Below are positions 927 to 11,850 of a stretch of DNA of 42,022 bases, piece by piece. The DNA is from an uncultured bacterium (lineage in GTDB: Bacteria > Patescibacteriota > Minisyncoccia > Phycocordibacterales > UBA918), in assembly GCA_913050645.1 (NCBI GenBank), contig CAJXAG010000003.1, forward strand, positions 1 through 42,022, read 5' to 3'. How positions within the stretch are numbered: position 1 is the stretch's first letter; every line of letters starts with the position of its first letter. The notes under the pieces are model-generated. The model worked only from the letters and a program-made list of their open reading frames with translations. It was not told where the DNA came from and ran no database searches. Position numbers and translations under genes: made by a program.

Positions 927-2048
927 CTAACGATTGGCCAGAGCAACCATAGTGCGTACGTCGTGAATTATTGCATCAAGTATTGTTGACACTTGGTATG
1001 TATCATCAAAATTAATGGACTGGTAGAAATCAGTGAGACCATACTTATTAAAGGTCTTATGATCTTGGGTAGGATATACCTTTATATCATCCTTGATATG
1101 GTTAAATTTAAACCACTGATTTTCTTCTAAAAGCCGCTCGGCATATGCCCGAGTGGCTTTTCCGTATCCAGCGTAGCCTTGAAGCATTTGACTGTATCGA
1201 CGCTCTTGCAGTTGAATGGTTATGTATAAACCATCTTCGAGTAAGTAAAAAATATCAATGATGCCTTGGGCACGAATCATACCTGGTCCTATATAGATTA
1301 TTCCTCGCTCAAGCACTTTTGGTCTAGTTCCAAAATGAACGGTGATATCGGGCAGTTCTTTACCTAGACGCTTCGCTAACAAGGCACCCAGTGACTGGTA
1401 CTTAATTTTTAGATACACATCCGCCATGCGAATGTTCTGCAAAAGTTGGAGGGTAGGATCAGTCTCTGGTTTATAGAAAGTAAATTGGTCAGACTCTTTC
1501 ACATCCACATCCTTCATAACGTCACTGATAAAAGTAATGAAGTAGATGTAGTCTTCGAGGATGAGTTTGTCGTACTGACCAGTAGTTGTGGGGACGAGTG
1601 TCTTAAGCGCCTCCGCTAATTGACGGTAGGACATGGTGTGCCAGAAGATATCGAGAACAGGAATTTTATCGGTCTTGGTGAATTCGGGACGAGTGAGAGT
1701 AAGGAGGAGAAAGTTTTGATTGTCAGTGTGACCCTTTGAATATTCCTCAAGTTGTTCGATGTACGGAATACTCTTTACTTTATTCTCCAGAATAAGTTCT
1801 TGACCATTGGCAAAGAAAAGATGTACGTCGATATTTTTCTGCTCTCGCTCGATACGTGTGATGGTGAGATCATCAGTAGTATCTTTTAAGTATGGAGAAA
1901 AAAGTTTACCAACTTGCTCAGGATATTTTCCTGCCAGCCAAGCAATAAAGTTACTGTGAAAGAGCTCTTTTGAACCCAATGATAATTGGAAAAGAGGTGA
2001 CGCTTTTATAGCGTCAGCTTCCCCGATAGGGGATGTAGTTGTATTCAT
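927..2048 (-). CDS. PD-(D/E)XK nuclease family protein (PDDEXK_4-like)
   Basis: ELFHSNFIAWL and RE..NIDV...LILENKV motifs. Confidence 0.8.
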   Translation of the reverse strand: MNTTTSPIGEADAIKASPLFQLSLGSKELFHSNFIAWLAGKYPEQVGKLFSPYLKDTTDDLTITRIEREQKNIDVHLFFANGQELILENKVKSIPYIEQLEEYSKGHTDNQNFLLLTLTRPEFTKTDKIPVLDIFWHTMSYRQLAEALKTLVPTTTGQYDKLILEDYIYFITFISDVMKDVDVKESDQFTFYKPETDPTLQLLQNIRMADVYLKIKYQSLGALLAKRLGKELPDITVHFGTRPKVLERGIIYIGPGMIRAQGIIDIFYLLEDGLYITIQLQERRYSQMLQGYAGYGKATRAYAERLLEENQWFKFNHIKDDIKVYPTQDHKTFNKYGLTDFYQSINFDDTYQVSTILDAIIHDVRTMVALANR

Positions 2049-2091
2049 ATTTTCTAGCGGGTTTTAGTTGTTGGAACCGATGACGAGTATC

Positions 2092-2187
2092 AAAAGGCTC
2101 CCAGCCATTGCGATCCAACCTTTCGGCCAGACCCATACCCGTTTCCAGATATGACCCGCTAGAGTGACTCTGACTGGGAGTCCTTTA
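2092..2187 (-). ncRNA. C4/CI-like antisense RNA candidate
   Basis: Closing stem, two stacked GAAA-tetraloop hairpins and a segment complementary to two flanking direct repeats. Confidence 0.6.
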
Positions 2188-2255
2188 ATCTCTAGCGGGT
2201 ATTTACAACCATACCGCCAGCAAGCTGTCGGGTTAGGTCTGATTTGTAATGAACA

Positions 2256-2278
2256 TAATAGCTCAATTTGAGCTATTA
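2256..2278. promoter_or_regulatory. Perfect 11-1-11 palindrome, putative operator between divergent genes
   Basis: TAATAGCTCAA-T-TTGAGCTATTA. Confidence 0.5.
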
Positions 2279-2397
2279 GTCAGTACCTTAGCTTAGTTTA
2301 AGGCTCTTACGAAGCCTCGGTTAACGACAGTTGCTTCCACATCACCACATAATTAAAGGGGTCTTATAAGGTAGAATATAAGTATATATTTGTTCCT

Positions 2398-3009
2398 ATG
2401 CAATCTCTTAAGACAATTCAACAAACTAACGATGCGATAATCAGAGAGGCTTTAGTCGGGCAACTTAAAACTGAATACTCTAAAAATCCAGAGTATCGTG
2501 TTATTCCTGAATTGGGTTTATGGCATGGTGCTTCGAGGATTGATGTCGCTGTGGTTAATGGTATTTTGCATGGGTTTGAAATCAAGAGCGATCGTGACAC
2601 ACTCAATCGTCTTCCTGATCAGAGAGAGGTGTATAACTCAATTTTTGATAAGGTTACTCTAGTTGTAGGAGCAAAACACTTTGTAGATGCATTTAAGATC
2701 GTTCCTGAATGGTGGGGTATCGAAACTGCACACTTAAATGAGGAAGGATCGGTTTTCTTCAATACAATACGTGAACCAAGAGAGAACCCAAAACAAGACG
2801 ATATTTCAATCGCACGATTACTATGGAGAAGCGAAGCTCTAGAATTGCTTGAAAGTATAGGTAGAGCTGATGGCGTTCGTTCAAAAACACGAGATGTAAT
2901 ATATACAAGAGTAGCTGAATCTATTGAGATAGATGTGCTTAAAAAGTATGTTAGGAATGTTCTTCAGGGACCCCGTCAAGACTGGAGGTCTGATGCGCAG
3001 CTAGCGTAA
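2398..3009 (+). CDS. sce7726 family protein (nuclease-like D...EIK motif)
   Basis: RIDVAVVNGILHGFEIKSDRDTLNRLPDQ, PEWWGI and LLWRSEAL motifs. Confidence 0.85.
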   Translation: MQSLKTIQQTNDAIIREALVGQLKTEYSKNPEYRVIPELGLWHGASRIDVAVVNGILHGFEIKSDRDTLNRLPDQREVYNSIFDKVTLVVGAKHFVDAFKIVPEWWGIETAHLNEEGSVFFNTIREPRENPKQDDISIARLLWRSEALELLESIGRADGVRSKTRDVIYTRVAESIEIDVLKKYVRNVLQGPRQDWRSDAQLA

Positions 3010-4084
3010 GGTGGTGGTTTATACTGACGGTTAGCCATGTGGTTGGACTTCCTGGTTTAATATTTTCTGGCGAAGCAATTCTAGAAACCTCAGCATCGCC
3101 AAAACTGTATTTGTCCAGTTTATAGAAATCACGTTTTACTAGTGTTTGTGCGTGTGCAATATATTGTTCTCTTCCAGGCCCCTTGATTCCAGTTTTACGG
3201 TCAATATGACCAGGCTTTTTGCCTCTGAATATGTACCACTTTTCGTCATCTGTATATCGAATACTGGCGCTTCCAATAGCTGCTACATATTCGTAAATTG
3301 GGTGTTGAGTTGTGTAGTCAGAAAAGAAAGGTGTGCGAGAAGTTATTGTGTCACAAATATCATTCCAAAGTTTCCATTCAGTTCTCTCTAACTGGTGTAC
3401 TTCACCTGAATTAAAATTGGTTAAGTCCTTTGGGAAAGCACCCCCAGACACAATAAATGATCGCCACCCATCTAAGTTTGGTAAAAGATTAAGACTTTTT
3501 ACAACTTCAGCTGCCTCCGTTCCGCTATCGATAATGCGTAAATCAATCAGGAGATCAAGGTCACTAATGTTCAATTTGTTAACCTCAATAAAATCAGTTA
3601 GGTGCTTAGATAAGTCCGTATCTTTAAGATGGGATTTGTCTATACGAATACAGAGTCCGTGCCCACTCTCCTTTGCGTAGTTGACAGCAATTTTACGAGT
3701 TTCCATGTCTGCGTCAGTACTAGTTACAGGAATGACATAAATAACCGGGATAGAGAACAAATCAAGGTCACTTGATGAAGATAATATTTCCTTAAAAGAT
3801 GTGGCTCGGATATCGCTGTCTAGAAGATGAACGTCAATAAACACAGGCTCACGCCCACACGATTTAAGCAAGCTGGTTGCAACACCAGGTAATTTTTCTA
3901 GGAATTTCTCTTTTGGGGTTTTCTTAACTTCCCGAGTTTCTCTGTCGATTGACGGTGCGGGCATAATAAATTCGATCAGAGGTGTAATTTTATCTCGATC
4001 TTCTGGGAAGAGCTTTTCAACTGCAGCTATCTCAGCAGGTCTCCATCTCAGTATAGGTACATAGGGTCTAATAATATTTCTCAT
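2951..4084 (-). CDS. Beta family protein (P4 beta/sce7725-like)
   Basis: YVPILRWRPAE N-terminus, GGAFP, FSDY, IRYT, FSxGD-like and W...NHH C-terminal motifs. Confidence 0.85.
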   Translation of the reverse strand: MRNIIRPYVPILRWRPAEIAAVEKLFPEDRDKITPLIEFIMPAPSIDRETREVKKTPKEKFLEKLPGVATSLLKSCGREPVFIDVHLLDSDIRATSFKEILSSSSDLDLFSIPVIYVIPVTSTDADMETRKIAVNYAKESGHGLCIRIDKSHLKDTDLSKHLTDFIEVNKLNISDLDLLIDLRIIDSGTEAAEVVKSLNLLPNLDGWRSFIVSGGAFPKDLTNFNSGEVHQLERTEWKLWNDICDTITSRTPFFSDYTTQHPIYEYVAAIGSASIRYTDDEKWYIFRGKKPGHIDRKTGIKGPGREQYIAHAQTLVKRDFYKLDKYSFGDAEVSRIASPENIKPGSPTTWLTVSINHHLTLAAHQTSSLDGVPEEHS

Positions 4085-4086
4085 AT

Positions 4087-5298
4087 TTATTCTTTAAACA
4101 CGTCTGCAAAATACTTTTGCACACTTAGGTCGGGGTTATTAACTATTTTGTTTAAGTAAAAGAAATTTTGATGTTTAAATCTAATCATGCCTGCTATAAC
4201 TGCTATGTTTACCTGTAATTCATTTGCCAAATCTTCTGTTGAAAATTGATTTGGAGTAGTTTTAGCTGCGCTTGTTTCCCATTTACTCTTAGGAAGAATA
4301 GCTTCTTCTGCAAGTGCATCTGCCTCAATTTCTTTTTGGTCATTTTCCTCACCGTCTTTATTTTGTAGTTCTTCGTCAAAGAAATATTCGATATTCATTT
4401 CGTAGTGAAGTGCCACGTGTGCAAGTTCATGCATAAGCGTAAACCAAAAATTGTCAGGACGATCGTGACGAATTGTAAGCCCAATAATTGGGTTGTCTTT
4501 ATCGGCAAAGAAAGTAGCACCGTCCAAATGTGATTTAGGAAGGTGGGGCTCAATAACCAGCTTAATACCGTGTTCTCCTAGATATTTTTGAGCAAGAAGT
4601 GGGCCAGTTGCTTTTGTGCTTAGTTGCACCACTTTGCGCATGAATGGCAAGTCCACGGTACCTTTCTTGTATTTTATAGGCACTTGTATTTCTGTAGCCT
4701 TCTGTAGTACTCGTGTGCCCCACGCAAGTAGTGAATTGTTGTCAGTACGAGGTGCTTTCCTAAAAATTGTCTTACGGTACAAGGCGGCTGGTTGAGGTTG
4801 GTTGAAAGTCGCAAAAAAGTTACTGACTAATTCTGATTTGCCAAAATCCTTAATAGTTTTATTCCCAAAGTAACCGCGCCGTTCCATGGCTTTCACTAAG
4901 GTAGTGTCCCAGTTTTCTGATTCAGAAGCGTTGTTAGATTTTTGTATAAGTACTTTTGCGGGGATTCCTAGACCAGTAGAAAGTGAACGAACCATGTCAA
5001 GTGAAAGTTGTCGTTTTCCAGAAAGAATCTCAGACACTCTACCCGCACTACCTACATAGGGAATTAGATCAGATGGTTTGAGATCTGCTTGCTCCATACG
5101 AAATTTAATTGCCTCGATTGGATCTGGGAGATTTTCGGGGAATGACTTTGATTCGTAGTCTTTTACTAGTGCTGTGAGAAGGAGTAGACGATCACCATCG
5201 ACAGTTCCAGATTCTGGATCACGATCAACTAACTCTTCAATGAAGTTGAGAGCATTTCGATATTCTTCTTTTGTTGTGATTATTTTTATGTTTTCCAT
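4087..5298 (-). CDS. higA: HigA-type HTH antitoxin fused to an ImmA/IrrE metallopeptidase domain
   Basis: PDPIEAIKFRMEQ...VSEILSGKR HTH plus FWFTLMHELAH (HExxH) and E.EAD; start placed at the ATG just after the higB stop. Confidence 0.85.
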   Translation of the reverse strand: MENIKIITTKEEYRNALNFIEELVDRDPESGTVDGDRLLLLTALVKDYESKSFPENLPDPIEAIKFRMEQADLKPSDLIPYVGSAGRVSEILSGKRQLSLDMVRSLSTGLGIPAKVLIQKSNNASESENWDTTLVKAMERRGYFGNKTIKDFGKSELVSNFFATFNQPQPAALYRKTIFRKAPRTDNNSLLAWGTRVLQKATEIQVPIKYKKGTVDLPFMRKVVQLSTKATGPLLAQKYLGEHGIKLVIEPHLPKSHLDGATFFADKDNPIIGLTIRHDRPDNFWFTLMHELAHVALHYEMNIEYFFDEELQNKDGEENDQKEIEADALAEEAILPKSKWETSAAKTTPNQFSTEDLANELQVNIAVIAGMIRFKHQNFFYLNKIVNNPDLSVQKYFADVFKE

Positions 5299-5303
5299 AA
5301 GCG

Positions 5304-5591
5304 TTATTTGATCTCCCATTTTTCATACTCTTTATGAGTACCAACATTTTTTACGAACACGACTCCACTGTTGTATGCGACTTTTACCCATAGACGGTAA
5401 TTATTTCCATAAATATTAAATACCACTTGTTTATTACCTATTAAGCTGGCTTTAGGGAAGTGAGCCTTCAGATCGTGGGGTCCCTTCCATGTCAATTCCC
5501 TTATTTCTGCTTCCCAGGCGTCAACATGGGATCTGGCATCAGAATGCTTTTGCTTAAAGGCATCAAGAATTTCTTTTCCGATTAGTTCCAT
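5304..5591 (-). CDS. higB: HigB family toxin (mRNA interferase)
   Basis: VFNIxGNNYRL and VGTHKEY motifs; directly upstream of higA. Confidence 0.9.
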   Translation of the reverse strand: MELIGKEILDAFKQKHSDARSHVDAWEAEIRELTWKGPHDLKAHFPKASLIGNKQVVFNIYGNNYRLWVKVAYNSGVVFVKNVGTHKEYEKWEIK

Positions 5592-5726: not shown

Positions 5727-7055
5727 ATGAGCAGAACAGAGGCACCAGAGGGATTTGTATCCAAACATACGTTTACACCTGTAACTACACGCTATTGCCT
5801 CTATGCTCGCAAGTCTACAGAGTCTGAGGAGCAGCAGGTTCTTTCAATCGACTCACAGATTAAGGAGATGCTCCAGATGGCAGAACGAGACAATTTAGAG
5901 ATTGTCGAAATCAAGAAAGAATCACACTCTGCCAAGGAGGCTGGGATGAGACCTGTCTTCAACGAGATCGTGGACGAGATAAAGTCTGGCAAATTTAACG
6001 GAATATTGACATGGGCTCCAGATCGTATTTCAAGAAATGCTGGTGACCTTGGGAGGATTGTTGATCTCATGGACTCAGGATTATTGCAGGAGATACGAAC
6101 GTATGGACAAAAGTTTAGTAACAATCCAAACGAGAAGTTCCTGCTAATGATTCTCGGCTCACAAGCCAAACTTGAGAACGATAATAAGGTGGTGAACGTA
6201 AAGCGAGGAATGAGAGCTAGGTGTGAGATGGGGCTGTATCCATGCATTGCGCCAACAGGATATTCAAATAGTAAGAATGTAGATAAGCGGTGTCATATTG
6301 AAATAGATGCAGAACGAGCACCGATAGTGAAGAAGATGTTTGAAAAGATTGCCTATGAAAACCTAACAGGCAGACAACTCTACTTTTGGCTAAGAGATGA
6401 AGCGAATTACAAAACAAGAACTGGTAAACAACTTCATCTCGGAAATCTCTATATGATTTTGCGAAACCATTTCTACTACGGCACATTTCAATATCCGAAG
6501 AATAGCGGGCAGTGGTATAAGGGTGCTCACGAGCCACTGATTAGTAAGGCGTTGTTTGATCAGGTACAAGAAAAAATACAGGTACAAAATACCCGAGGTG
6601 GTGGTATGCAAACAAAAGAGTTTGCCTTCACAAAGCTGATGTCTTGCGCACTTTGCGGATCAGGAATTACGGCTGACGAAAAGTATAAAACTCAGAAGAA
6701 TGGAAACACCCATCGCTATGTCTACTATGGGTGCTGTAAGTCGAATGATAGGAGTTGTACCTCGGGCTATATCAATGAGGATGACCTGGTCGAACAGCTA
6801 GTTGCCCTGATGGACAAGATTGAGTTCAACGACATCGGAATGAGGCAAAAAATAAAAGCGGAGATAGAGAGGCATAAAAAGTTCCAGTCGGGATTACTTG
6901 GTGAAAAAGAATCGAAGATAAAGGTAAAAGATGTCGAGGTTAGGAGTTATGCTAAGTACATCTTGAGAGAGGGGCAGACGCATGAGAAGAGAGAGTTGCT
7001 GTCGTGTTTGAAGAGTAGGATATGTGTCGCTAATAAACTGGTTAGCCTAAAATAG
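5727..7055 (+). CDS. Large serine recombinase (resolvase, recombinase and Zn-ribbon domains)
   Basis: YARKST catalytic motif, DRISRN, AHEPLIS, CALCG and YYGC. Confidence 0.92.
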   Translation: MSRTEAPEGFVSKHTFTPVTTRYCLYARKSTESEEQQVLSIDSQIKEMLQMAERDNLEIVEIKKESHSAKEAGMRPVFNEIVDEIKSGKFNGILTWAPDRISRNAGDLGRIVDLMDSGLLQEIRTYGQKFSNNPNEKFLLMILGSQAKLENDNKVVNVKRGMRARCEMGLYPCIAPTGYSNSKNVDKRCHIEIDAERAPIVKKMFEKIAYENLTGRQLYFWLRDEANYKTRTGKQLHLGNLYMILRNHFYYGTFQYPKNSGQWYKGAHEPLISKALFDQVQEKIQVQNTRGGGMQTKEFAFTKLMSCALCGSGITADEKYKTQKNGNTHRYVYYGCCKSNDRSCTSGYINEDDLVEQLVALMDKIEFNDIGMRQKIKAEIERHKKFQSGLLGEKESKIKVKDVEVRSYAKYILREGQTHEKRELLSCLKSRICVANKLVSLK

Positions 7056-11775: not shown

Positions 11776-11850
11776 TGGTGCCCCTACTAGGAATCGAACC
11801 CAGATCAAGAGCTTAGAAGTCTCCTGTTTTATCCATTAAACTATAGGGGC
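11776..11850 (-). tRNA. tRNA-Arg(TCT)
   Basis: GCCCCTA acceptor stem, CTTCTAA anticodon loop, GGTTCGATTCC T-arm and encoded CCA. Confidence 0.95.

Follow-up and report, generated by a model that had tools for sequence, protein, structure and literature searches.

A LOOT RNA leading a nuclease gene in a Patescibacteria island, with a closing stem and a start-codon box outside the Rfam model

The structured element upstream of a PD-(D/E)XK nuclease gene in the 42,022-nucleotide stretch of Patescibacteria (CPR) DNA analysed here, called the window throughout, is a member of the catalogued LOOT RNA family (Rfam RF03000) and not, as an earlier note had proposed, a relative of the phage C4 and CI antisense RNAs. 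The analysis adds two conserved pairings that the public LOOT model lacks, namely a 3' extension of the RNA that forms a closing stem, and a box just before the start codon of the following gene that copies one strand of the RNA's own P2 stem. It seems probable (roughly 0.6) that LOOT serves as a 5' leader driven from its own promoter, in which the other P2 strand, box B, toggles between its partner, box A, and the start-codon copy, box C, and so frees or masks the start site.

LOOT reportedly comes from the metagenomic motif collection of Weinberg and Breaker, and is said to have been described in Weinberg 2017. Rfam types RF03000 as 'Gene; sRNA'. A literature search returned no paper on what LOOT does or on the pairing described here; the motif name is absent from the main text of Weinberg 2017, whose supplement may hold remarks on a pseudoknot or on gene context. 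A figure legend in Rfam 14 describes LOOT as a 'metagenomic-based' RNA, Table 2 of Rfam 15 gives it two added covarying pairs, and Rivas 2020 mentions cross-covariations for it.

The RNA, its fold and its parts

A scan of the window matched the LOOT model full-length (model positions 1-121) on the minus strand with 77.6 bits and E 4.5e-13, the curated gathering score of RF03000 being 46.4 bits. The hallmarks of the family are seen in the Rfam alignment, in the fold and in the invariant columns: four hairpins, of which P1 has CCUAA...UAUGG, P2 is long with a stem that varies by compensating changes, and P3 and P4 end in GNRA loops. When positions 1900-2450 were run by cmscan against all 4227 Rfam families at E<=10, no C4-type model matched, and only LOOT, sR55 and RefB11 were listed, the latter two at chance level; membership of the C4/CI family is thereby set aside. 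The parts of the element and the gene behind it, in the order of transcription, are as follows.

2255..2283, minus strand: promoter-like site, -35 CTGACT (2283-2278), 17-nt spacer, -10 TATTAT (2260-2255), read from the sequence
2256..2278, no strand assigned: perfect 10-bp palindrome TAATAGCTCA-AAT-TGAGCTATTA, overlapping the -10 hexamer, read from the sequence
2112..2239, minus strand: LOOT RNA (RF03000), covariance-model match, 77.6 against 46.4 bits
2206..2239, minus strand: P1 hairpin with the conserved CCUAA / UAUGG internal loop, from the LOOT model alignment
2190..2200, minus strand: box A, 5' strand of basal P2, ACCCGCUAGAG, formerly read as an 'upstream target' (sequence, LOOT model and fold)
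2171..2186, minus strand: T5', apical part of P2, AAAGGACUCCCAGUCA, from pairing computations
2154..2164, minus strand: box B, 3' strand of basal P2, CUCUAGCGGGU, formerly read as a 'guide', complementary to A and C (sequence and pairing)
2134..2153, minus strand: P3 hairpin with GAAA loop (LOOT model and fold)
2112..2133, minus strand: P4 hairpin with GAAA loop (LOOT model and fold)
2092..2107, minus strand: T3', UGGCUGGGAGCCUUUU, partner of T5', outside the Rfam model (pairing computations)
2053..2062, minus strand: box C, ACCCGCUAGA, copy of the first 10 nt of A, complementary to B (sequence and relatives)
927..2048, minus strand: LOOT-led gene, 373 aa, PD-(D/E)XK nuclease, ATG at 2048-2046 (Pfam PDDEXK_4)

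The 10-mer ACCCGCUAGA occurs twice on the minus strand, at 2200-2191 and at 2062-2053, and its exact complement UCUAGCGGGU lies between the two at 2163-2154. In the 1.0-Mb genome the 10-mer has only three occurrences over both strands, and since all three are inside this element the pattern of repeat and complement goes beyond chance. The minimum-energy fold has z = -4.98, with none of 200 shuffles equally stable. In this fold, and likewise in the Rfam LOOT consensus, B pairs with the upstream copy A in an 11-bp stem (2200-2190 / 2164-2154), and boxes A and B are thus the two strands of LOOT's basal P2 stem. The earlier note had placed much of the element correctly: the direct repeats, the complementary segment and the 4 nt to the ATG are where it put them, both of its GAAA hairpins appear in the minimum-energy fold (2153-2134 and 2133-2112), and its closing stem exists and is widely kept. 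The complementarity of its 'guide' also stands, while the exposure of that segment belongs only to the alternative fold drawn in that note, and the 'target' that it placed upstream turns out to be the partner strand within P2. The parts of the RNA that it delimited are all present, but its coordinates leave hairpin P1 (2239-2206) outside.

In P1 the bases C3, C4, T5, A6 and A7 are invariant in an alignment of 46 loci (A1, below), and we take the CCUAA/UAUGG loop to resemble the 11-nt GAAA-tetraloop receptor. The apical part of P2 has two mutually exclusive options, since T5' can fold locally into a hairpin of 5 bp (GACUC/GAGUC) or join T3' in the long-range closing stem, 2186-2171 / 2107-2093, a 15-bp duplex with one bulge and a computed energy of -23.1 kcal/mol. 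T3' ends with four U (2095-2092), and by these computations may be a strand either of a terminator-like helix or of a pseudoknot. Box C follows about 30 nt beyond T3' and ends 4 nt before the ATG (2048-2046). Counted from the start codon it occupies -14 to -5, a stretch covered by the 30S subunit, and the second repeat does sit where the ribosome must bind. The nested-fold energies computed for the window are -74.9 kcal/mol for the A:B state, -73.2 for the T state and -69.0 for the B:C state.

Two conserved pairings across LOOT loci

LOOT is present in 60 of 151 genomes of the window's genus or order and close relatives, above the cut-off in 57 of them, and all 88 hits from the 151 genomes make up the relatives' set used below, whose members are not mutually independent. 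A phylum-wide sample has it in 29 of 150 other genomes, and none of 14 control genomes contains it. The window's own genome holds two further copies, scoring 73.3 and 63.3 bits. These lie at C9:22986-23117 (L002) and C13:12410-12526 (L003) of genome G000; L002 carries a box of another sequence, CCCACGCGA, which stands 4 nt 5' of the ATG of a 157-aa membrane protein, and L003 is without a box yet leads a 304-aa ORF.

Records that contain the window's P3 sequence are labelled Paceibacterota, Parcubacteria, Saccharibacteria, Nomurabacteria, Woesebacteria and similar. One LOOT with a box (L168) is on a contig labelled 'uncultured Flavobacteriaceae bacterium', all others being from Patescibacteria groups, and this label may reflect a binning error or a transfer. 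As regards a phage origin, the P3 24-mer had no exact match in IMG/VR, and blastn against INPHARED gave no hit.

An exact repeat of A of at least 9 nt, 25-80 nt downstream of LOOT, is found in 48 of the 88 relatives' loci, and one of at least 8 nt in 51. For the 9-nt repeat the controls are low, with 1/88 in the upstream flank and 0/88 in the reverse complement of the downstream flank, and matching the LOOT of one locus to the downstream flank of another gives 3.6% of 7656 pairings. In 50 of the 51 loci with the repeat of at least 8 nt the box ends 2-7 nt before an ATG, which opens an ORF of 67-479 aa. A second set of 25 distinct loci was selected solely by the exact 24-nt P3 sequence, and here the repeat reaches at least 9 nt in 22 and at least 8 nt in all 25; the figures 48/88 and 22/25 are the unbiased ones for the frequency of the box.

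The box is not one fixed sequence. At least 18 different sequences of box C, as counted from the locus listings, shift along with A and B, and P2 as a whole falls into 47 different sequence classes across the 88 loci. Among near-identical leaders of the second set there are single-base differences that are altered in A, B and C together (L177 and L179). Where A and C of one locus do mismatch internally, pairing with B is retained through G-U or G-C in 6/6 cases, and this speaks for selection that acts on the RNA pairing rather than on a repeat in the DNA. An A-rich 5' flank is also common to A and C, and does not pair with B.

Alignment A1, made with MAFFT from 46 box-bearing loci, was picked for the repeat, so that pair counts taken from it are biased toward B:C. 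On A1, 85.1% of B:C cells are paired against 62.5 +/- 1.4 in shuffles, a level that 0/500 shuffles reach, and sliding the partner lowers the figure to 34-59%. Two-sided changes occur at 9 of 10 B:C pairs, which describes the pairing, though loci selected for the repeat do not prove it. The complementarity of guide and target in homologous leaders, the feature on which the earlier reading had been staked, is in this way borne out, with the box in 48/88 loci, and the target-antisense-target layout stands with it. A:B comes out at just 59.8% paired on the MAFFT alignment, where the columns of A are misaligned, and the Rfam alignment and per-locus stems were used for it instead. In 42 distinct loci the A:B duplex has a mean energy of -20.2 and the C:B duplex one of -18.4 kcal/mol, A:B being stronger in 28 of the loci, equal in 4 and weaker in 10.

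The exact repeat of at least 9 nt is missing in 40 of the 88 relatives' loci and in 24 of the 29 phylum-wide loci (box in 5/29), and its absence from so many makes C an add-on of some lineages and not the core function of LOOT. For the LOOT copies that have no box, no convincing remote box was found in any of the five genomes searched (the window's own, G129, G038, G007 and G026), the hits being at the level of the reversed-pattern control. A candidate remote site in G007, 10 nt followed by an ATG, was rejected, as it opens merely a 38-aa frame. Two copies of the same P2 class were met within one genome in 0/45 pairs, 1.3 being expected, and this is not significant (P = 0.26).

The second pairing, the closing stem, is the more widespread. 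The top of P2 pairs with the segment right after P4, over 10-17 bp, in 83 of the 88 loci, compared with 14% for pairings between loci; on A1, 97.4% of its cells are paired, with two-sided changes at 8 of 10 pairs. Downstream of this T helix, 73 of the 83 loci have TTT within 8 nt and 49 have TTTT, the U run often being short or interrupted. The T helix shares bases with the local hairpin of 3-6 bp that Rfam draws at the top of P2, so the two are mutually exclusive. Formed together with A:B, it would by this modelling make a pseudoknot. It varies by compensating changes and usually has a U run behind it; however, it spans about 60 nt of enclosed sequence, an unusual arrangement for an intrinsic terminator, and a simple terminator scan did not list the long-range T helix. 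The Rfam model of LOOT ends at P4 and has the top of P2 as a local hairpin, whereas in the window and in the 83 of 88 loci it also pairs beyond P4; the start-codon copy of the 5' strand of P2, present in about half of the loci, is likewise outside that model.

Promoter, genes and island

The promoter-like site in front of the window's LOOT places the predicted transcript start about 8-10 nt 5' of P1. Among the 85 distinct upstream regions of LOOT loci, a -10-like TAnnAT is found in 74, against 28.5 in shuffles, and the extended form TGnTAnnAT in 43, against 1.9. The palindrome over the -10 hexamer has counterparts elsewhere, in that 33 of 85 upstream regions have an inverted repeat of at least 6 bp at this spot, compared with 8 of 86 after shuffling, and the arms differ by locus; it could be an operator, a two-way promoter or -10 shared with the divergent gene at 2398..3009, or a hairpin.

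Between the -10 and P1, about 10-25 nt 5' of LOOT, 45 of the 85 regions (loci L009-L087) have a conserved ACAAYTNAAT, typically ACAACTGAATAT, with which the transcript probably begins. This box is missing upstream of the window's LOOT. Short contigs from two runs labelled as RNA align over 2104-2263 and 2122-2262 with 90-95% identity, giving neither ends nor strand nor proof of transcription, and from their identity they derive from relatives; one of them extends 5' past the predicted transcript start.

The gene that the window's LOOT leads was already read as a PD-(D/E)XK nuclease from its translation, and Pfam agrees, the 373-aa ORF matching PDDEXK_4 with E 2.9e-7 and 31 bits over a cut-off of 22.3. 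Loci treated as box-less are also followed by genes, a same-strand ORF beginning within 300 nt in 38 of the 40. Of 50 genes behind box-bearing LOOTs, 15 score above a Pfam cut-off. The families met among these are PDDEXK_4 (the window), N6_N4 DNA methylase, HNH, Imm_superinfect, Ltp, DUF4352, tRNA_anti-like, FemAB and Pmp3, and a strongly hydrophobic segment is present in 28 of 48 proteins behind box-bearing LOOTs. This set has no metabolic theme and is too varied for an ordinary metabolite riboswitch. The lack of a Shine-Dalgarno sequence was considered as a special trait of LOOT-led genes (0/50 have one) and dropped, the genome at large standing at 11% against 8.9% for random sequence, so that the lack is not distinctive.

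Two recurrent LOOT-led families have no Pfam match. One is of about 197 aa (L018, L037, L040, L054, L074) with the motif ...LEFWQYGFSSLNSNVLRGALAEF..., the other of about 246 aa (L009, L010, L014, L034, L080) with the motif ...NFWGYGNL...WFVGMEEG.... The first codons after box C, ATGAATACA (MNT...), are common to unrelated genes, at 2046-2037 in the window and at L010, L015, L028, L034, L047, L050, L061 and L080, and this start is found in the PD-(D/E)XK nuclease, in the 246-aa family and in zinc-ribbon membrane proteins. The leader cassette may reach into coding sequence, or may be swapped onto new genes by recombination.

On the other side of LOOT from its gene, the window continues with the following features.

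2398-3009, plus strand: 203-aa ORF, no match in a Pfam search
2951..4084, minus strand: 377-aa 'Beta protein', Pfam PF14350, E 5.7e-63
4087-5319: M78-domain protein
5304-5591: HigB
5727-7055: large serine recombinase
11779-11850, minus strand: tRNA gene, Rfam tRNA, 64.3 bits
14560-14632, minus strand: tRNA gene, Rfam tRNA, 67.1 bits

The 3' ends of the 203-aa ORF and of the Beta protein ORF overlap. LOOT sits in a serine-recombinase island of a Patescibacteria genome, and its neighbourhood has the look of the accessory portion of an integrative island, one that continues beyond the start of the contig.

Modes of action

In the toggle that we favour, B paired with A, as in the LOOT fold, would leave box C single-stranded and make ribosome loading possible, and B paired with C would mask the start region and leave the gene untranslated. 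The A:B and B:C helices differ little in energy, as would suit a switch. A further choice would lie at the top of P2, where the short local hairpin and the pairing with T3' beside the U run resemble the alternatives of an antiterminator and a terminator, and this choice would set the number of transcripts that reach the gene. As trigger, a ligand, a protein, ions, temperature or co-transcriptional folding kinetics are all conceivable. A:B is the first helix to form in transcription and in most loci outweighs C:B, so that B would have to be released by some factor, for which no candidate was found; it also counts against a toggle that nearly half of the LOOT leaders do without C. Action of B within its own transcript, in the style of a riboswitch platform, seems more likely than that of a processed RNA on other transcripts, given that no remote box was found in 5/5 genomes and that B is sequestered wherever A is kept.

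Action on other transcripts is what the C4/CI comparison of the earlier note would imply. A short LOOT RNA, ended at the U run or cut out as a stem-closed domain of about 95 nt, would pair with box C on read-through transcripts, silencing the gene in established cells and allowing a pulse of expression on entry, and we hold this to be unlikely. Mature C4-type RNA is cut from its leader by RNase P and works with two loops, compared with a single box of 10-11 nt in LOOT, and the variable sequence of LOOT is reminiscent of P1/P7 heteroimmunity. A short form of LOOT is made plausible by the terminator-like helix that follows it in 83/88 loci, the 47 P2 sequences in 88 loci and the lack of same-class copies within a genome (0/45 pairs) can be counted in its favour, and the A-rich 5' flank common to A and C looks as though C could replace A in the fold. 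However, the 0/45 result is within what chance gives, B stays paired in any RNA that still contains A, nothing indicates that A is removed, and P1, situated upstream of A, is better conserved than any other part and so is unlikely to be discarded; nor was a box C met away from its own LOOT in any of the 5 genomes checked, or a C4-type Rfam model matched.

What LOOT does share with these phage RNAs is layout only. In P4 the antisense segment of CI RNA is flanked by two direct repeats complementary to it, with seqA on the upstream side and seqC downstream, at the first gene (PMC4825925), and P1 C4 is similar (PMC8198154). Unlike theirs, the upstream copy in LOOT is paired inside the RNA's own fold, and where the C4/CI immunity regions hold antirepressor or replication genes, LOOT leads a nuclease and has a serine recombinase, HigB, an M78-domain protein and the Beta protein for neighbours. 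A functional parallel is IsrK of Salmonella Gifsy-1, described in PMC4825925 as an sRNA with its own terminator whose read-through product is an mRNA, complementarity in the leader deciding its translation; IsrK activates translation on other transcripts, and its sequence and fold are unrelated to those of LOOT.

Carried further, LOOT might be a self-addressed, programmable regulator of mobile islands in ultra-small bacteria, a compact knotted RNA with a freely changeable address of 10-14 nt. Each strand of P2 would carry this address, a third copy would stand at the cargo gene's start codon, and the short terminated RNA would repress other transcripts in a manner akin to immunity. We regard this as rather improbable. 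If true, nucleases, methylases and exclusion proteins would be silent in established hosts and pulse in a naive cell, the dozens of address classes would be orthogonal 'immunity groups', and the principle of P1 C4 and P4 CI would have been invented independently, with a different RNA fold and in a different part of the tree of life.

Two readings remain, and we consider both to be very doubtful. By one of them LOOT is merely a transcription attenuator or a stabilising 5' structure, and box C has no pairing role but arose as a side effect in the DNA, for instance through duplication in the recombination by which the leader cassette is attached to new genes. That 40 of the 88 LOOT loci serve as leaders without C would fit this, as would the cassette-like recombination suggested by a leader and first codons (ATGAATACA) common to unrelated genes, and the running on of the repeat into the A-rich flank, a stretch outside the pairing with B. 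A duplication should decay freely, though; instead C tracks A and B across at least 18 sequences and through single-base changes made in all three, the internal differences between A and C preserve B pairing in 6/6 cases, and C stays constantly 2-7 nt from the start codon. By the other reading LOOT is a true riboswitch for a small molecule or ion, with A/B/C and the T elements as its translational and transcriptional expression platforms.

A riboswitch would suit the compact conserved fold with its GNRA loops and receptor-like loop, and the two pairs of mutually exclusive helices, A:B or B:C and local P2 hairpin or T helix. In the adenine 'add' riboswitch the 3' strand of a domain helix has two alternative partners, the 5' strand of that helix and the translation start region, with a variable helix and a conserved core, and LOOT likewise joins a variable switching helix to a conserved core, as in known riboswitch platforms. 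In contrast to platforms of the 'add' type, the terminator-like helix is additional and the genes have no common theme: a coherent gene set, as expected behind a riboswitch, is not what is seen, 28 of 48 LOOT-led proteins having a hydrophobic segment and others being nucleases, methylases or superinfection-type proteins. Conserved unpaired bases are, from the LOOT alignment, largely explained by tetraloop and receptor motifs, and there is no obvious ligand pocket.

LOOT has been listed as a motif without a known role since 2017, and the present results place it as a promoter-proximal leader. They also offer a hypothesis that can be tested by mutation, namely that one P2 strand alternates between the opposite strand of its stem and the copy near the start codon. 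If true, this would be among the first regulatory mechanisms for accessory genes in CPR bacteria, a group not easily approached by genetics, and it would provide a compact part whose specificity is reprogrammable by sequence.
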